DNA of 50,914 bases from a virus. Its lineage: Duplodnaviria; Caudoviricetes. The translations under genes were made by a program, and so were the position numbers. This document shows positions 6,984 to 50,587 of this stretch, piece after piece; position 1 is the first letter of the stretch, and the number at the start of each line of letters is the position of its first letter. The stretch spans positions 1 through 50,914 of IMG/VR virus record IMGVR_UViG_3300047560_001018. One strand, written 5' to 3'. The notes beneath the pieces were generated by a model. That model did not search any database, was not told the DNA's origin, and saw only the letters and a program-made list of their open reading frames with translations.

Positions 6984-7207
6984 AGAACGCAGTAGAGAAG
7001 CTAAGCTTTACTCAGCAGTATGTTGAATGGAAGCGAGCAAAGGAATGGGTATCACACCAGTGGACGCCGGAGGAGTTTTTGCGAGAGGCTATCCTGCTAG
7101 AGAAGGAAGAGGTATACAACCAGATCTATGACATTCTAATGGAGGAAGATGATTGCACACCAGAAGTTGCGCTAGCCAAGATTCGCGACCTAGTATTCGA
7201 TGAGTAA
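6980..7207 (+). CDS. hypothetical protein
   Basis: GTGA coupling, GGGAG RBS. Confidence 0.65.
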   Translation: MKNAVEKLSFTQQYVEWKRAKEWVSHQWTPEEFLREAILLEKEEVYNQIYDILMEEDDCTPEVALAKIRDLVFDE

Positions 7208-7730
7208 ATACGAGTGGGAGGAAGCGGAGAACCATAATCCGTGGGGCAAGAAGCGCAAGCGAGGGACACACTGCTCTAAGGGCCATGAGTTTACGCCAGA
7301 GAATACATTCATTCGAGCGTATGACAAGGCCCGCGTATGCCGAGAATGCCGCAAGCAGTATGCTCGTGAGAAGTATCAGCGCAACAAGGAGCTAACCGGA
7401 GCGTCACGCCAGAAGAAGATCCGGCAGGTGATCATCGAGTATGAGAACACGCTATCAGCTAATGCTATTGACAAGTGGCGAGAGCTGCAGTATGCTATTA
7501 GTGAGAATGATCCAAAGTGCAAAGGTGCTGAATCTGTCTATGCAGATAGACAATATCCAGTACCAGAGGATAAAGCCGAGGAGATGTGCCATGGCTGCCC
7601 ACTGATCAAGCTGTGCTACGACTATGCAGTAGCGGCCGAAGTCAACCAAGGCATTTGGGGTGGCATTGATTTTACACAGGAGGAGGAATATGACCTTATT
7701 GAAACGCTCTATCAAGGATCTTACAGTTGA
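7200..7730 (+). CDS. whiB: WhiB-family transcription factor with N-terminal Zn-binding domain
   Basis: C-terminal C...CxxC-x5-C plus GIWGG; N-terminal THCSKGHEFTPENT...CREC. Confidence 0.85.
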   Translation: MSKYEWEEAENHNPWGKKRKRGTHCSKGHEFTPENTFIRAYDKARVCRECRKQYAREKYQRNKELTGASRQKKIRQVIIEYENTLSANAIDKWRELQYAISENDPKCKGAESVYADRQYPVPEDKAEEMCHGCPLIKLCYDYAVAAEVNQGIWGGIDFTQEEEYDLIETLYQGSYS

Positions 7731-8468: not shown

Positions 8469-9200
8469 ATGTCGGCAACCGACTTTCCGGGCTTCTCATT
8501 CCAGAAGCTCATCCACAAGGCAGAACAGCTTAATAAGCCAAACTCGATCTTACTATTCGCAGATCCGGGCAAGGGCAAGACTTGGCTGGCCGCTTCGATC
8601 TCAGAGGTCGAGGGCTATGACAAGGTTCTTTTGATCGACGTTGAGGGTGGCGCGTCAGCGATCGCTCGAGACTGGAAGAACGTAGACGTTATCAGCGTGA
8701 AGACTCACGAGGGTTTCGTCAAGGTTATCGAAGAGCTACTTGCTAACCCTGACTACTACAACGCAGTGATCATCGACACCATTGGTGTTGTCATGGACCG
8801 AGCTGAGAAGTTCTTTGGCGAGAAGCCAGAGAACAAGAACAATAAGTTCGGCCGCTGGGGTGACCTGAAGAACTGGGCTAACCAAGTCTTCCGTGATCTT
8901 CACACTGCTTCGTTCACATCGATCATTATTGCACACGCACTTGACGACAAGGACGAATCAACGGGAGCAGTGAAGACTACTGCAATGCTTCCGGGCTCAT
9001 TCAAGGGAACGCTTCCGGGCATCCCCGATATCGTTGGCTACATGACGTTCGAGATGGGCGATGAGGGACCACAGCGTGTTCTAGTCACCGGAAACTCGGA
9101 TCGACTAGTAACCAAGAACCGCTTCGGTTTGCCACCGAAGATTTACGCACCAACCATGAAGAAGATCTTTGATCTCATTAACGAAGGAGGAAACAACTAA
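8469..9200 (+). CDS. AAA_24/Sak4-like ATPase (RecA-fold recombinase)
   Basis: ADPGKGKT Walker A, IIDTI Walker B, TKNRF C-terminal motif; between Cas4 and SSB. Confidence 0.88.
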   Translation: MSATDFPGFSFQKLIHKAEQLNKPNSILLFADPGKGKTWLAASISEVEGYDKVLLIDVEGGASAIARDWKNVDVISVKTHEGFVKVIEELLANPDYYNAVIIDTIGVVMDRAEKFFGEKPENKNNKFGRWGDLKNWANQVFRDLHTASFTSIIIAHALDDKDESTGAVKTTAMLPGSFKGTLPGIPDIVGYMTFEMGDEGPQRVLVTGNSDRLVTKNRFGLPPKIYAPTMKKIFDLINEGGNN

Positions 9201-9667
9201 TGACTAACATTTCATTCGACATCACCGAGGAAGCCCTAGCGGCTGCCAATTCATCGAGCTACGAGCCAGTTCCAGCAGGTTCGTATAATGCAACCATCTT
9301 CGACGTCAAGTCGGAGCAGGTAAAGTCGGGTCCAAACGAGGGCAAGCCGCGCTTCAACATCCAGTTCCGTCTCGGTGGTCAGGGCGTTGAGAACCGTCGC
9401 GTGTTCGGTTACGTCTCACTCTACGCTGCTGGTGACTTCTGGAAGACCAAGGCGTTCTTCTCGGCGCTTGGCTACGACATGAAGTCTGGCAAGTTCACCG
9501 TTCCAGAGACAACCGAGTTGCTCGGTAAGCCAATCGGTGTCACTGTCAAGATCGGCACTGATCAGAACGGCCAGCCTCGAAACGAGATCGGCGGCTTCGA
9601 CAAGCCAGACGGCGCAGCAACCCTCGCTGCTGCTTTGGGCGCAAAGCCAGTAGGCGACGTCTTCTAG
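9200..9667 (+). CDS. ssDNA-binding protein (DUF669-like)
   Basis: YEPVPAGSYNATI, L.GKP..VTV, RNEI motifs; acidic/aromatic C-terminus; synteny. Confidence 0.75.
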   Translation: MTNISFDITEEALAAANSSSYEPVPAGSYNATIFDVKSEQVKSGPNEGKPRFNIQFRLGGQGVENRRVFGYVSLYAAGDFWKTKAFFSALGYDMKSGKFTVPETTELLGKPIGVTVKIGTDQNGQPRNEIGGFDKPDGAATLAAALGAKPVGDVF

Positions 9668-9709
9668 TCGAAAACAAAATCCTAGGTCATGATTTAAAAC
9701 TGACCCCAC

Positions 9710-9793
9710 GCCCGGACTGGTGTTAAAGCTTTGGTGTCTTCCTTTCTTTCTCCTTTCTGTTAGCTGATGCAAGTTCGATTCTTGCTCCGGGCA
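9710..9793 (+). ncRNA. tRNA-like RNA with anti-Shine-Dalgarno polypyrimidine tract replacing the anticodon arm
   Basis: 7-bp acceptor stem GCCCGGA/TCCGGGC plus A; perfect T arm GCAAG-TTCGATT-CTTGC; no D stem or anticodon stem-loop; central TCTTCCTTTCTTTCTCCTTTCT. Confidence 0.75.
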
Positions 9794-9865
9794 CAAACTG
9801 CATGCTCTCCGTAAGTGGCCGGCATGTGGGTCCTGTAGTGTAGCCAAGGCAGCTGCAGGATATTT

Positions 9866-9937
9866 TGCCCCTTAGCTCAATGGCAGAGCAGGAAGCTGTT
9901 AACTTCAAGGTTGTTGGTTCGAGTCCAGCAGGGGCAG
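9866..9937 (+). tRNA. tRNA-Asn (GTT)
   Basis: Acceptor TGCCCCT/AGGGGCA, D arm GCTC/GAGC, anticodon loop CTGTTAA, T arm GTTGG-TTCGAGT-CCAGC, discriminator G; CCA not encoded. Confidence 0.92.
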
Positions 9938-9965
9938 CGGGAGAAACATACATAAAGGAGGATAC

Positions 9966-12161
9966 ATGAAGACAGCGGATTTCTTTTCTGCAGTATTTGG
10001 CGATGGCCGTGGACTAGCAACTATCGTAACCAAAGGTGCTACTGGCGAACTAACTGAGCAGCGGTTCTACGAGTATCCAGAGCGCAAAGATGAGATGATC
10101 GCATACTGCAATCTGCACACTCGCGAAGATGTTTACTTCTCACCAATTCTTTTCAACTCGCCACGTCGCATTAAAGAAAATGCTAAGACTGTATCAGTTA
10201 TCTATTCCGATGCAGATACTTGCGAGCCAGACAACTTCTTGATCGAGCCTTCGATCGTCGTGCAGACCTCGCCAGATCGCTGGCACACATACTGGATGCT
10301 GACTGAAGAGACAGATCCACAGGTAGCTGCACTTCTATCCAAGAAGATCGCACACGCCCATGCCCACCAAGGCTGTGACAAATCAGGCTGGAATACCACT
10401 AAGCTTCTCCGTGTGCCAAACTCGATGAACCTGAAGCGTGAACCATTTAGCGTTACGGCCGTTAGCAACGGATCACTATACACGCTTGATGATATCGAGC
10501 TGCACTATGGTGATGTTGAAGTTGAACCAATTCGGGAACTGACAATCTCAGAATTCCCACCAGAATTCCCAGACCTCATGACTACACTGAATAAGGTCCA
10601 GAGTAATCCGGAAGTGCTTGGCTTGTATATCAACGAGCCTTCTCCGAATGCAGACTGGTCCAAACTTCTGTGGAAGCTAGAGATCGCCTTGTATCGCCAA
10701 GGCCTAAGTGAGCGAGAGGTATTTGTTGTATGTCGCGGTGCGAAGTGCAACAAGTATCACTCACCGCTACGACCAAAGCGTATGGATGCAGATGGCGATC
10801 TATGGCGTGAAGTGCAGCGAGCGCACCAGTCGTTTGTTGCAGAGGGCGGAATGCTTGAGCCAGTGCGTATCGAGCCACTCGACACCATTGTTATCTCGCA
10901 GGAGCCCGAACGAGCTGTATTCTTAAGCGACGACGAGCGTTCTTTGGTCATGGAGACGCCCACGTTCGTGGATGAATATCTAGGATGGGCCACATCGAAG
11001 ACGGACGGTGCGATCAGTTATCAGATCGCTAGTGCATTTACTGCGCTATCGTGCGTATTCTCCGACATTGGTTATGCTGTGCCGAAGTACGGACGTATGG
11101 GCCTGAATCTGTGGTTTATGGTGCTAGGTGAAACAACTCTTACTCGTAAGTCAACTAGCCGCAACCTTATGTTGCGACTGATTCGCGAGTATGAAAAGTT
11201 CTCTGGCTACCAGATCGACATTGGTTCGGATGCAACGCCGGAAGGTGTTACATCTATCCTTTCTGAGCGAGACGGAAAGACTTCCCTATTGCACAGAGAT
11301 GAAGTCCAAGGTATGTTTAAGGACTTCATGAACAAAACCTACATGGCCTCAGCAGCCGAGCGATTCACTGAATTGTATGACGGCCATGTTCCGGTTGTAA
11401 TCCGATCAGGCAAGGGCAAGTCCCAGACTGAGCGAGCAACCACAAACTTCGTGATGTATCTTATGGGTATCGGATCGAAGACAGCTGATGTTCTCACTAC
11501 TGAGTACTTTAAGTCTGGCTTCTTGGCACGTTTCATTTATGTTACAGCCAAGACGCCAGACCGTACTCGTGAGATGGAGGATATCCAACAGGCAGAAGAG
11601 CATGAAGCGATCATTAAAGATGGTAAGCTAGACTCTTTGGTTAAGTCCCTTTATGGCGCAGTTACCTACTGGCAGAAGAAGGGCTCGCCAATGCCGCGAC
11701 CGATCCGATTGGATCACTCGGCACTGGAGCGGTTCAACCGATTCAAGTGGGAGATGGGCAACTTTGCTGAGTCTCACCCAGAATACGAATCGATCGAACC
11801 TAGCCGACAGCGACTAGCACTATCTGTTTGGAAGTGTGCAATCCTGTTGGCCATGTATGATCAGTCAGATGAAGTAAGACTTAAGCATATGCTTATTGCT
11901 ATTTACTATTCTGAAGACTGGTTTGCCAACCTAACTGAGATGGCTAGCGCTATCTCAAACTCTGAATGGCAGCGCGACGTCGACAAGCTCGAAGCGTTGG
12001 TCATGGATAAGGGTGGGCGAATTCGTTATGAAGAAGCGTATCGCAAGTTTAACAACAAGCGCAAGCGCGAATTCGACGAAATGGTACAGGCCCTGCAATC
12101 GCAGGCGCGTGTGCAGCAAGTAATAGAAAACCAGAAAACGTATTTGGAGGTGATTGGATAA
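9966..12161 (+). CDS. DNA primase (RepB-like/prim-pol N-terminus) fused to a DUF3987-like P-loop domain
   Basis: YSDAD, VQTSPDRWHTYW, LLRVPNSMN primase motifs; C-terminal GETTLTRKST, RDE, SGFLARF. Confidence 0.85.
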   Translation: MKTADFFSAVFGDGRGLATIVTKGATGELTEQRFYEYPERKDEMIAYCNLHTREDVYFSPILFNSPRRIKENAKTVSVIYSDADTCEPDNFLIEPSIVVQTSPDRWHTYWMLTEETDPQVAALLSKKIAHAHAHQGCDKSGWNTTKLLRVPNSMNLKREPFSVTAVSNGSLYTLDDIELHYGDVEVEPIRELTISEFPPEFPDLMTTLNKVQSNPEVLGLYINEPSPNADWSKLLWKLEIALYRQGLSEREVFVVCRGAKCNKYHSPLRPKRMDADGDLWREVQRAHQSFVAEGGMLEPVRIEPLDTIVISQEPERAVFLSDDERSLVMETPTFVDEYLGWATSKTDGAISYQIASAFTALSCVFSDIGYAVPKYGRMGLNLWFMVLGETTLTRKSTSRNLMLRLIREYEKFSGYQIDIGSDATPEGVTSILSERDGKTSLLHRDEVQGMFKDFMNKTYMASAAERFTELYDGHVPVVIRSGKGKSQTERATTNFVMYLMGIGSKTADVLTTEYFKSGFLARFIYVTAKTPDRTREMEDIQQAEEHEAIIKDGKLDSLVKSLYGAVTYWQKKGSPMPRPIRLDHSALERFNRFKWEMGNFAESHPEYESIEPSRQRLALSVWKCAILLAMYDQSDEVRLKHMLIAIYYSEDWFANLTEMASAISNSEWQRDVDKLEALVMDKGGRIRYEEAYRKFNNKRKREFDEMVQALQSQARVQQVIENQKTYLEVIG

Positions 12162-46200: not shown

Positions 46201-46297
46201 AGATACACGAAGCGCCTAATCGGATTCTAGGCCTAGGGATTAAATGCCCTAGGTTTAGTGGCTGGATTAGCCGAACAACCTAGAGAAAGAAAGACCT

Positions 46298-46459
46298 ATG
46301 TTCACGAAGCCCGACTTGCGAGACGGCCTTTTTTACTGCGAGACCTGCGGTGAAGTCGAATTTACCGACAACTGCGGCGCATGGAATCGAATCCTTGACC
46401 CAATTTGTCCAACTTGCTTCGATGAATTGACCGAAGCCGAACAGGAAGACCGCTACTAA
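46298..46459 (+). CDS. small Zn-finger protein (CETC...CPTC), first gene of the + arm
   Basis: Hand-translated 53 aa, AGAAAG RBS. Confidence 0.7.
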   Translation: MFTKPDLRDGLFYCETCGEVEFTDNCGAWNRILDPICPTCFDELTEAEQEDRY

Positions 46460-46734
46460 TGAGCAAGCGCAACGCAACAACCGACTTTGTGCCAGTGCTT
46501 GGCATGACCTACGCAAACGAATACTTTGTTGGCGTAATCACCGAAGTTAGCGAGCGTCACACTGCCGCTAACGGCAAAGAACTTATCCGCTTCCAGATTG
46601 AGATTCAGGCAATCACAGACACCGCTCAGGCTATGGCTTTGAGCCTCGAGCCAGGGCAACGTGTCTGGCGTCAAGCAACCCCAACACACGCCGCAAACGG
46701 CCGCTGGAATGTAATGCGCAACGCTGGCCAGTAG
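46459..46734 (+). CDS. hypothetical protein
   Basis: TAATG-coupled ORF. Confidence 0.7.
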   Translation: MSKRNATTDFVPVLGMTYANEYFVGVITEVSERHTAANGKELIRFQIEIQAITDTAQAMALSLEPGQRVWRQATPTHAANGRWNVMRNAGQ

Positions 46735-46801
46735 GCTAGACTTAGACCTAGGCAAGTCTCTAAAAGGCCTATCCACAACCCAACAGAAAGAAAGAAAGAA
46801 C

Positions 46802-47044
46802 ATGACGCAAGCAACCGTGAATCATGCAATTGCCCGCTCGATTGCCGACCTAGTGACGGCCGCGATGACCGAGGCCCGAGACGGCTGGGAATACGAAGAC
46901 ACGCTGGCCCGTGTTGAGATGGCCGGATACCTCGATGGCATGACCCAGATGGCAATCCTTCTAGGCTTCGAAGTAGTAACGAAGGGCTCGGAAGAATTGA
47001 CCCTACTCGGCCGCGGCTACATCGAGAAGCTCGCCAACGCATAA
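46802..47044 (+). CDS. hypothetical protein
   Basis: AGAAAGAAAG leader. Confidence 0.75.
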   Translation: MTQATVNHAIARSIADLVTAAMTEARDGWEYEDTLARVEMAGYLDGMTQMAILLGFEVVTKGSEELTLLGRGYIEKLANA

Positions 47045-47116
47045 TAGCGACAACCAGCACCTACCGCCCTAGGCATGGCCTCTAAACTGCCTACACCTTC
47101 AAACAGAAAGACAATC

Positions 47117-47422
47117 ATGCACCCCGCAATCATCCACGCAATCAAGCGCCGCCAGGATTTTTCACTTGATCTATCGGCCGCCCGTATCGAAGGCCGAAGC
47201 CGTGACCTAATCACGCAAGACGGCCACGCCTACACGACCTACACCGTGTTTTATGACGGCGAAAAGGTTCTCTACTCGGCCGGCTACAGCACCCGCTTTA
47301 ACGATTTCGTGGCTATGCACTACACCGTTACCGACGAAGTGTTCGCCAGCGACTTCATGCTGAACCGATACCAGCGCGTTAACGCCGTGTCGGACGCGCT
47401 GGCCGAAGCTCTCGGCCTGTAG
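47117..47422 (+). CDS. hypothetical protein
   Basis: AGAAAG RBS before ATG 47117. Confidence 0.7.
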   Translation: MHPAIIHAIKRRQDFSLDLSAARIEGRSRDLITQDGHAYTTYTVFYDGEKVLYSAGYSTRFNDFVAMHYTVTDEVFASDFMLNRYQRVNAVSDALAEALGL

Positions 47423-47721
47423 CAAGTCGTGTAGGTTCAACTCTGGTTTTTTGCTAGAGTTGTTCCTAGGCAACTTGCCTAACCCAACTAGAGAAAGAAA
47501 GAAACATGGCAACCTTCACCGTAGTCGAGACCTACGTTTACAAGATTGAAGCCGAGTCGGCCAGCCAGGCCGAGGAATTGTTCGCGACCTACATGGCTGA
47601 GGATGACGACCGCCTACAGCTGATTGACAACCAGCTAGAAGTCGAGACCAACTAGCTCGAATCGTGTAGTTCAGCCCTAGACTTGTGCTAGGGTTGTTCT
47701 AGGCAATTCGCCTAACCCAAC
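47422..47721 (+). repeat. two copies (47422-47488, 47658-47721) of a long imperfect hairpin with covariation
   Basis: Shared CGTG/GGCA and TT/TT internal loops with compensatory stem changes, followed by GCCTAACCCAAC. Confidence 0.8.
47506..47655 (+). CDS. small acidic hypothetical protein (49 aa)
   Basis: Hand-translated MATFTVVETY...EVETN; GAGAAAGAAAG leader. Confidence 0.7.
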   Translation: MATFTVVETYVYKIEAESASQAEELFATYMAEDDDRLQLIDNQLEVETN

Positions 47722-47737
47722 AACAGAAAGAAAGAAT

Positions 47738-47962
47738 ATGAAGCACACACTTCGCCGCGCGATTGCTTCGGCTATCGCCATCCCATTCATCGCCGGGGCT
47801 AACGTCTTCGCCTACATGACGGCCGCGAGCCTGTTCCCTAGCGTGGACTCAATTGCCCGCCTAGTCGATTCCTACAACAGCGGCCTAGCGATTGCCGTTT
47901 CGGTCGCCGTCACCTTCACCTTCGGCCCGCAACTCAGCCGCGTCTTCGGATTCAACAAGTAG
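47738..47962 (+). CDS. two-TM membrane protein
   Basis: Two hydrophobic segments; AGAAAG leader. Confidence 0.7.
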   Translation: MKHTLRRAIASAIAIPFIAGANVFAYMTAASLFPSVDSIARLVDSYNSGLAIAVSVAVTFTFGPQLSRVFGFNK

Positions 47963-50049: not shown

Positions 50050-50587
50050 CAAGTTGATAACGGGGGTTGACAAGCTGGTTGATCCCCGTTAAACTTGTTT
50101 CATAATTTAAAAAGCGATAACAAAGTTTGGCCCGATAAGCTTAGTAAACACACGGGAGATAACCGGCCCTACCCTGTGCAACAACATAACGATTCGATAA
50201 CAACACTTGACAACCGACAACCTATCCACTAAGCTAGATCTGATACCCAATTCCAACATAACGAAACGATAACGGGCATTCTACAGGCTCGCATCCACTT
50301 TGTCAAGCCCGAAACGATAACAATCAGATCACAATCAACGAAGCCACCAGCGGCCGCTAGCGGGCTTTTCAGCTATTGGTTGGTATGATTCCCCATTCTA
50401 ATGGCTTCGTGGCTTCTACGGGCGTTTTACGGCGTTTTTGGATCTTTTGCCCTAGCTCTATAGATCATGGCACAGGCTTGCCGTTATCAATCCGTTATAA
50501 AAAAGTTTGGAAAAACACTTGACAAGCGTTTCGGCTGTGCTAGATTAGAGATATCAGGAAGCAAACAACACGAAAGGAATTCCCGAT

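Follow-up and report, generated by a model that had tools for sequence, protein, structure and literature searches.

A conserved family of tRNA-shaped phage RNAs with an anti-Shine-Dalgarno-like loop upstream of a primase-helicase gene

The virus record IMGVR_UViG_3300047560_001018 (50,914 bp, analysed over its whole length and called the window below; estimated to be complete, G+C content about 49%) carries, at positions 9710-9793 of its + strand, a member of a conserved, previously undescribed phage RNA family. These elements combine the acceptor stem and T arm of a transfer RNA (tRNA) with a pyrimidine-rich loop of anti-Shine-Dalgarno (anti-SD) character, which stands in place of the anticodon arm. 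The element is a real, selected, tRNA-scaffolded RNA and not a product of decay. As for its role, our best reading, to which we give an even chance on the strength of sequence comparisons, is that the RNA masks the Shine-Dalgarno (SD) site of the downstream primase-helicase gene, either in cis or after excision.

Structure and conservation of the element

The boundaries of the element follow from its sequence and from its match to a covariance model described below. Seven perfect base pairs (GCCCGGA, 9710-9716, with TCCGGGC, 9786-9792) form the acceptor stem, and a discriminator A is read at 9793. The D stem is absent; its place is taken by a 10-nt linker (9717-9726) with GG at 9719-9720. A central stem of four base pairs (AGCT, 9727-9730, with AGCT, 9762-9765) encloses a pyrimidine-rich loop of 31 nt (9731-9761), which contains two anti-SD-like repeats and is among the longest in the family. 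The variable GAT (9766-9768) leads into a T arm with a perfect 5-bp stem (GCAAG, 9769-9773, with CTTGC, 9781-9785) and the loop TTCGATT (9774-9780). The acceptor stem, discriminator A, T arm, missing D stem and AGCT/AGCT repeat around a CU-rich tract had all been pointed out in an original prediction made from the sequence alone, and all of them are indeed there. One detail has to be redrawn: the AGCT/AGCT helix stands, but it encloses the 31 nt given above and not the 26-nt tract named in that prediction, which corresponds to 9736-9761. Folding of the element with RNAfold gave a minimum free energy of -21.5 kcal/mol (z -1.64), with 11 of 200 shuffled sequences folding as well.

Related loci were collected by a search with the primase protein, which returned 66 loci on viral contigs (57-100% amino-acid identity), and by a search with the protein of the neighbouring DUF669 gene, which returned 22. 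Inspection by eye already reveals the element in many of these loci, where its stems differ in sequence. A covariance model, R1, was built from 16 sequences (75 positions, 18 pairs) and found 67 matches at E<=0.001 in 75 sources (520,161 bases). These matches scored 29.6-92.5 bits and were found once per locus, always on the primase strand; the window element reached 45.8 bits (E 1.1e-7) and genuine tRNAs at most 25.3 bits. Wherever 340 nt or more of sequence was available before the primase start (60 loci), the element was present, and it was always intercistronic, in the order DUF669 gene, element, DUF3987 gene. Five complete relatives contain exactly one copy each.

The helices of the family are supported by compensatory changes. 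In an alignment of 49 distinct sequences, which was fitted to R1 and favours the structure, 91.5% of the cells in paired columns were occupied by standard pairs, compared with 68.5% in shuffles (0/500 reached the observed value) and 30-45% when the partners were slid, and 17 of the 18 base pairs had changed on both sides. The central stem was 94.5% paired with compensatory changes in all six pairs, and the T stem 99.6% paired with such changes in four of five; within the acceptor stem, pairs 1-5 were always formed, while 6:67 was unpaired in 21/49 sequences and 7:66 in 35/49. RNAalifold independently returned the same three helices and left the loop open, with compensatory changes in 14 of 15 pairs. 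When the two often-unpaired acceptor positions were left out, 25 cells were G.U and none A.C, and therefore the RNA is read from the + strand, in the sense of the flanking genes. Invariant throughout the family are the GG of the linker, which we regard as the analogue of the D loop, the GTTC at the junction of T stem and loop, and a CTCC core in the central loop. The linker measures 8-10 nt and forms no stem in any of the 49 sequences. The discriminator is A in 46/48 sequences and the next base C in 48/48; a complete CCA is encoded in the genome in 7/48. The comparison suggested in the original prediction, stem covariation together with a conserved CU-rich loop across related phages, was thus positive, with CCUCC or UCUCC in 49/49 loops. 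Its view that decay alone is an unlikely origin of the RNA is borne out by the R1 family, the covariation and RNAalifold.

Two readings of the element as a tRNA, namely a pseudogene in decay and a functional tRNA that has an intron or an unusual anticodon loop, are effectively excluded. The element does lie in a tRNA cluster, its acceptor stem resembles those of the neighbouring tRNA-Thr and tRNA-Asn, and one weak outlier of the family (locus L144, 27.4 bits) is called as tRNA-Glu by ARAGORN. However, the three helices have been kept by compensatory changes in 49 distinct sequences, the D stem is absent from all of these, their loops span 11-33 nt (median 19), and pair 1:72 is C:G in 8/48, so that no single aminoacylation identity is kept. 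The tRNA detectors made no call on the element: in the window region, both ARAGORN and Rfam at its gathering score reported only the tRNA-Asn at 9866-9938, and ARAGORN called no element in 61 upstream stretches. The Rfam tRNA model (RF00005) gave no match at E<=10 in the window or at E<=5 in a typical member (L004); the match that the window element had at E<=10 was to tRNA-Sec, with a score of 15.5 bits where the cut-off is 47.

To survey the breadth of the family, viral contigs were scanned with two patterns. This returned 88 stretches comprising 82 new loci, 55 of which were R1-positive; among positives from contigs new to the set, 22 of the 24 examined have DUF669 and/or primase neighbours. 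The other two are L144, the weak outlier mentioned above, and L169. The latter, a clear member at positions 354-426 of its locus on a viral contig of 103.9 kb, has neither neighbour and suggests that the RNA is present in other phage lineages. Before it, a simple hairpin and AATGGCA take the place of the pseudoknot described below. When deposited phage records (50,697) were compared by blastn, two regions of the window, of 361 nt and 6 kb, matched only at the tRNA-Asn, and the pseudoknot and element of L004 gave no match; no cultured relative was found among these records. One pattern, which covers part of the family, was run over 185,579 species-representative bacterial genomes and yielded 21 stretches, none of them a member by R1. 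The sole R1 match in these stretches (27.9 bits) lay elsewhere in its locus and resembles an ordinary tRNA.

Within the 500 nt before the primase start, close relatives carry between zero and four true tRNA genes (Asn, Thr, Gln, Trp), and 30 of the 61 upstream stretches are without any tRNA called by ARAGORN; the tRNA-like RNA does not vary in this way. The element is less variable than the adjoining true tRNA genes, suggesting that it serves the replication module in a core function. In this sizeable group of uncultured phages, which encode WhiB and have genomes of about 50 kb, it is universal (60/60 loci).

The loop and the primase-helicase leader

In the consensus fold, the C-rich motif of the loop is open and unpaired. 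CCTCC occurs in 37 of the 49 distinct loops and TCTCC alone in the other 12. We liken the loop to the 3' end of actinobacterial 16S rRNA, which we take to be ...ACCUCCUUUCU. An actinobacterial host is pointed to by the WhiB-domain protein encoded at 7200-7730, in the same gene arm as the element.

From this likeness follows one possible role for the loop, namely that of a mimic or decoy of the 16S tail (...CCUCCUUUCU), occupying a protein or nuclease that recognises this tail (an anti-SD-cleaving toxin, a maturation enzyme or S1/S21-type binders may be envisaged) and pairing with no mRNA at all. In 23 of the 49 loops, the longest string shared with the 16-nt 16S motif as we presume it to be is one of 8 nt (CCTCCTTT), in 7 more it is one of 9-10 nt, and the U-rich 3' flank of the loop core is conserved. 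The 5' flank of the core is, however, pyrimidine-rich (CUCU...) and unlike rRNA; the 12 loops mentioned above have UCUCC and not CCUCC, and one subgroup has CCUCCUCC with no UUU after it. Moreover, the complementarity of loop variants to the primase leader of their own locus bears no relation to the rRNA tail, and the replication arm showed no gene that could be a candidate partner. We therefore consider a decoy rather improbable.

Masking of the primase-helicase site draws on the complementarity between the loop and the leader of the next gene. This gene, the first one downstream (9966-12161, + strand, 731 aa), is of the DUF3987 primase-helicase type (Pfam PF13148, E 4.8e-20), and its leader at 9939-9965, directly before the ATG at 9966, is the predicted target. 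RNAduplex predicts that the loop segment GTGTCTTCCTTT (9734-9745) pairs with the SD tract AAAGGAGGATAC (9954-9965) over 12 bp, two of them G.U, and that the segment TTTCTCCT (9747-9754) pairs over 8 bp with an upstream purine tract, GGGAGAAA (9939-9946). The 12-bp pairing would end 1 nt before the primase ATG. The predicted energy of the loop-leader duplex is -23.6 kcal/mol, compared with -15.2 +/- 3.0 for shuffled loops, 23/2000 of which reach it. A second purine tract (GGGAGAAAC, GAGAGATAAA, GGAGAGCAAA), such as the one at 9939-9946, lies 20-30 nt before the start in most primase leaders of the family and is complementary in sequence to the loop's 5' half. Where CCUCC is repeated in a loop, GGAGG is repeated in the leader opposite. 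The distance from the end of the element to the start codon of the primase gene is only 25-62 nt in 21 of the 60 loci, and there the element is the immediate 5' untranslated region (UTR) of that gene.

Across the family, loops and primase leaders co-vary. Among 24 cluster representatives, loops paired with their own primase leader at -16.35 kcal/mol, against -14.38 overall. The double-centred residual was -1.97 and negative in 21/24 (permutation p = 5e-5); with leaders restricted to -22..+3, which leaves out the element's own 3' strand, p was 1.5e-4. When the same test was applied to other + strand leaders of the same loci, the residuals were -0.25 (p 0.09) and -0.29 (p 0.22). After loci had been added and the loops parsed independently, whereby five sequences with no parsed central stem were dropped, 26 representatives gave a residual of -2.55, negative in 22/26, with 0/20,000 permutations as low; the own leader was within the top 3 of 26 for 11 loops. 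The complementarity often goes past what the 16S tail could offer, as with CCUCCUCCCUG and CAGGGAGGAGG in L037 or CUUCUUCUCC and GGAGAAGAAG in L045 and L138. When all predicted leaders of six complete genomes were ranked against the own loop, the primase leader came out at 1/97, 6/79, 1/81, 3/82, 14/76 and 3/79. The first of these ranks is that of the window, obtained with -35..+3; with -22..+3 the window's primase leader is sixth of 97. The gene starts used for these comparisons were set by a crude purpose-made caller, and two start sites (L061 and L009) were misplaced.

The original prediction had named other targets. It envisaged an excised, stable RNA that binds many early phage and/or host leaders with none of them privileged, by which SD-dependent initiation would be shifted or shut down generally. 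The leader matches cited for this exist, at 46283-46293, 46443-46450, 46782-46790, 47102-47110, 47491-47501, 47722-47730 and 50572-50579, each 3-11 nt before an ATG. Furthermore, the loop behaves as a generic anti-SD sequence, pairing with leaders of the + strand gene arm at a mean of -13.1 kcal/mol and with those of the - strand (structural) arm at -9.8, and its pairing with several leaders other than that of the primase gene is equally good. Nevertheless, such matches are no more frequent than chance would bring for a CU-rich tract: there are six sites of at least 9 nt on the + strand of the window, and shuffled tracts give 3.7 +/- 2.4, with 210/1000 reaching six. The leaders of five other phage genomes match equally well, which leaves no preference for the own genome and does not bear out the leaders at 46-50 kb as targets. 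The co-variation is with the primase leader and not with other leaders of the same loci, so the start region singled out by the data (9939-9965) is one that the original prediction did not name. Lastly, the phage's own genes rely on the same SD sequences. On balance, we find such a general competitor unlikely. A phage-wide co-evolution of loops and leaders was also tried and rejected: for six loops, no own-genome diagonal appeared, either by matches of at least 8 or 9 nt or by duplex energies. As a separate observation, the first small genes of the + arm in the window (46280-47740, + strand) use purine-repeat leaders of the AGAAAGAAAG type, without a GGAGG core; in the 16S tail, only the final six bases would be available for pairing with such leaders.

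Several findings weigh against masking of the primase-helicase site. In the window, the central stem that should present the loop is, with its 4 bp, the weakest in the family, and RNAfold, which predicts the acceptor and T arms, does not predict it. Within the three major loop groups the permutation p is 0.053, and therefore the loop-leader signal rests largely on few independent differences, about three at the level of clades. With leaders of -22..+3, those at 2749 (-22.1) and 1388 (-20.7) in the window beat the primase leader (-16.6), and in genome G004 the primase leader ranks only 14/76. The primase SD is among the strongest in each genome, and therefore part of the loop affinity is generic. 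Mismatches between loop and leader were G.U-compatible in 8 cases and of the A.C type in 8, and therefore pairing at the RNA level is not separated from an inverted repeat at the DNA level. Furthermore, tRNA genes lie between the RNA and the leader in 39/60 loci, where processing would sever a cis element. One metatranscriptome run (0.06 of words) gave contigs at low depth on the DUF669 gene (9200-9261 and 9421-9622) and left the element uncovered, and is uninformative.

Proposed mode of action and relation to known RNAs

If the RNA masks the primase-helicase site, it would be transcribed on the + strand within the replication-gene operon. The tRNA parts that were retained (acceptor stem, discriminator A, T arm with its TTCGATT loop, and the GG) would be those needed by processing enzymes and for an L-shaped elbow, and the anticodon arm would have been replaced by a variable stem presenting a pyrimidine loop of 11-33 nt with CCUCC or UCUCC. 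This loop could act like the C-rich seed regions of RoxS-type small RNAs, masking purine-rich ribosome-binding sites by base pairing, foremost that of the downstream primase-helicase gene. In 21 of the 60 loci the pairing may take place in cis, because the RNA is the immediate 5' UTR of the primase gene there. Where one to four tRNA genes are inserted, as with the tRNA-Asn of the window, it might occur in the unprocessed precursor. Alternatively, the RNA would pair in trans after its excision, with RNase P acting at the 5' end, RNase Z or exonucleases at the 3' end, and CCA being added. Judging from its sequence features, among them those of a coaxial acceptor and T-stem helix of about 12 bp and of an elbow between the T loop and the D-loop analogue, and from the precedent of YrlA (see below), the scaffold plausibly allows cleavage by RNase P, maturation of the 3' end and addition of CCA, and plausibly makes the RNA stable. 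If such a stable RNA were produced in a 1:1 ratio with a target mRNA that is unstable, it could work as an accumulating brake. We infer all of these steps, that is transcription, processing, stability and repression of primase translation, for the element.

A more far-reaching version would see in the element a free-standing copy of the anti-SD tail on a tRNA body, excised, CCA-tailed and stabilised by the host tRNA machinery, which accumulates and acts on initiation globally, with the pseudoknot as part of the device. Such an RNA could out-compete the 30S subunit for SD leaders and serve as a timer that shuts off the replication genes, or it could decoy a factor directed to the 16S 3' end. 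We think this quite unlikely; if true, it would be a new viral way to reprogram initiation by RNA instead of protein.

With tRNA, the element shares the 7-bp acceptor stem with discriminator and the T arm (5-bp stem, 7-nt loop of the TTCRANY type), and it differs in having neither a D stem-loop nor an anticodon arm with 5-bp stem and 7-nt loop, and in being recognised neither by RF00005 nor by ARAGORN. Its loop has counterparts among bacterial small RNAs. In RoxS and FsrA of Bacillus subtilis and RsaE of Staphylococcus, pairing with the SD of targets is seeded by a C-rich motif that lies unpaired in a hairpin loop, and RoxS pairs extensively with the SD of ppnKB (PMC8216469). The element is like these RNAs in the unpaired C-rich motif of its loop, and its own pairing with an SD is predicted. 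They are chromosomal, have their own promoter and terminator and no tRNA-like body, whereas the element is phage-encoded, intercistronic and tRNA-shaped, carries a full CCUCC(UUU) anti-SD sequence and adjoins its likely target.

The scaffold can in turn be compared with YrlA of Mycobacterium smegmatis. This RNA, whose tRNA-like module includes an acceptor stem of 7 bp, is a substrate for cleavage by RNase P RNA in vitro, and CCA is added to it in vivo (PMC4201824). YrlA RNAs (Rfam RF02553) are likewise non-tRNA RNAs with a T arm and an acceptor-like stem, and have members in phages. Unlike the element, they are encoded beside Ro60/Rsr, possess a Ro-binding stem and have no anti-SD loop. No TROVE gene was matched in the 50,914-bp record. 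The YrlA model gave no match in the window and, in another family member, 19.2 bits against a cut-off of 69, on the T arm only.

The tRNA-like domain of transfer-messenger RNA (tmRNA) also resembles the element, having an acceptor stem, a T arm and, as D-arm analogue, a stemless loop with GG. The element has neither a tag frame, for which its loop is too short, nor the G3:U70 pair of tmRNA (pair 3:70 is C:G in the window; over the family it is C:G in 44/48 distinct sequences and U:A in 4/48), and its pseudoknot lies outside the tRNA-like part, on the 5' side. A tmRNA search with ARAGORN found nothing in the window or in the 61 upstream stretches. As in leaders that sequester an SD in cis (riboswitch platforms, translational-operator pseudoknots), an upstream hairpin loop would pair with the SD of the next gene. 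In contrast to these, the element matches no aptamer family, has a tRNA mimic as scaffold and tolerates whole tRNA genes between loop and target (39/60 loci). As for other viral RNAs, species 1 and 2 of the T4 tRNA cluster are virus-encoded, have tRNA-like ends and are processed along with tRNAs, and the tRNA-like fold of tymoviruses is preceded by a pseudoknot, the plant-virus structures being found at the 3' end of RNA genomes. To our knowledge, neither the T4 RNAs nor the plant-virus structures carry an anti-SD loop.

In Rfam 15, no family matches the element or its pseudoknot, as examined in the window and seven other members, and no description of a tRNA-shaped anti-SD RNA was found among the papers listed by full-text searches of the openly accessible literature. 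tRNA mimics and SD-masking RNAs are each known, and their joined form is not described in the literature found. If the proposed mechanism holds, it would show how a phage primase-helicase is set or timed at the RNA level, explain why tRNA genes gather at this locus, and indicate that host tRNA-processing enzymes can be used to make a regulatory RNA. A tRNA scaffold with a programmable loop would also be a compact natural design for RNA tools, and the covariance model is usable to annotate the family in viral metagenomes.

The upstream pseudoknot and the genomic surroundings

Upstream of the element lies an H-type pseudoknot (9677-9705, + strand), recognised by an alignment-free parse and by covariation. 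Stem S1 is formed by AAATC (9677-9681) and GATTT (9691-9695), stem S2 by GGTCA (9685-9689) and TGACC (9701-9705); the loops are CTA (L1), T (L2) and the A-rich AAAAC (L3, 9696-9700). A 4-nt spacer, CCAC (9706-9709), separates the pseudoknot from the 5' end of the tRNA-like RNA, and in the family this distance is 3-4 nt. The layout a-L1-b-L2-a'-L3-b' was parsed in 39 of 44 distinct upstream sequences, compared with 6 of 880 shuffles; as for the remaining five, three have a different upstream region and two have one mismatch in S1. The pseudoknot occurs in two sequence classes, and both stems change compensatingly. In the 24 class-A sequences, S1 was 97.9% paired, compared with 5-35% when slid, and showed compensatory changes at 2 of 4 positions; the outer pairs of S2 could not be counted on the MAFFT alignment of these sequences owing to gap placement. 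A search for a known aptamer gave no Rfam match to the pseudoknot at E<=10 (window) or E<=5. In most loci, though not in the window, a conserved AATGGGCA motif precedes the pseudoknot. It was considered as the start of a mini-ORF (a very short open reading frame) and rejected, as the frame length, judged by eye, varies from 6 to 27 codons across loci.

The pseudoknot may cap the upstream mRNA after cleavage by RNase P, or it may belong to the same device as the tRNA-like RNA. The former would agree with yet another explanation of the whole locus, a pure processing and stability module in which RNase P and RNase Z cut the operon mRNA after the recombination genes and before the primase gene, the pseudoknot caps the 3' end of the upstream mRNA and the loop is kept, for example, for protein binding. 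The strictly intercistronic position in 60/60 loci is consistent with this, as is the variable array of zero to four tRNA genes beside the element, by which tRNA processing would take place there anyway. The same can be said of the end of the pseudoknot 3-4 nt before the predicted RNase P site and of the lack of a promoter-like site nearby (none in a promoter scan of 9300-10100). Yet punctuation needs no conserved loop, and the anti-SD core is kept in 49/49 sequences while the stem enclosing it varies freely; besides, the loop co-varies with the primase leader. Punctuation as the sole function is thus improbable.

On the 3' side, a spacer with two predicted hairpins (9794-9865, + strand; fold -31.3 kcal/mol, z -3.46, 1/200 shuffles as good) separates the element from the ordinary tRNA-Asn (GTT; 9866-9938, + strand), which was called by ARAGORN, scored 61.8 bits with RF00005 and directly precedes the primase leader. 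The second hairpin of the spacer (around 9839-9857 with flanks) is terminator-like with a T-run after it and was seen only in the window and in a 98%-identical relative, L043. Should this putative terminator work, a transcript would end with the tRNA-like RNA in the lineage of these two. Terminator-like sites near the element number one, against 0.8 expected.

The genes of the window are organised into two arms. The + strand arm runs from about 46 kb across the record end/start to 16.2 kb, and the - strand arm from 45.9 kb down to 16.3 kb. Pfam matches mark the + arm as a module for replication and nucleotide metabolism: its products include an SNF2 helicase, an AAA_24 ATPase, an RNase H-like exonuclease, a dUTPase and ThyX, as well as the WhiB-domain protein mentioned above; a match to a PD-(D/E)XK nuclease in this arm is weak (19.8 bits, cut-off 22). 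The last gene on the 5' side of the RNA module belongs to the DUF669 family (9200-9667, + strand; Pfam PF05037, E 3.2e-7), ends with the stop codon TAG at 9665-9667, and is the upstream gene in related loci as well.

Two minor observations concern the tRNA genes and tRNA-like RNAs of related loci. The tRNA-Gln call in L014 and L041 is unusually long (82 nt). In addition, a second kind of tRNA-like RNA, 80 nt in length, lies 3' of the first one in L007 (1539-1618) and L051 (2892-2971, equal to L125 at 3726). Only two distinct sequences represent it. Both an acceptor stem of 7 bp and a T arm are present; (A/G)TGG stands where a D arm would be, and CAAAGCC occurs in the central loop.

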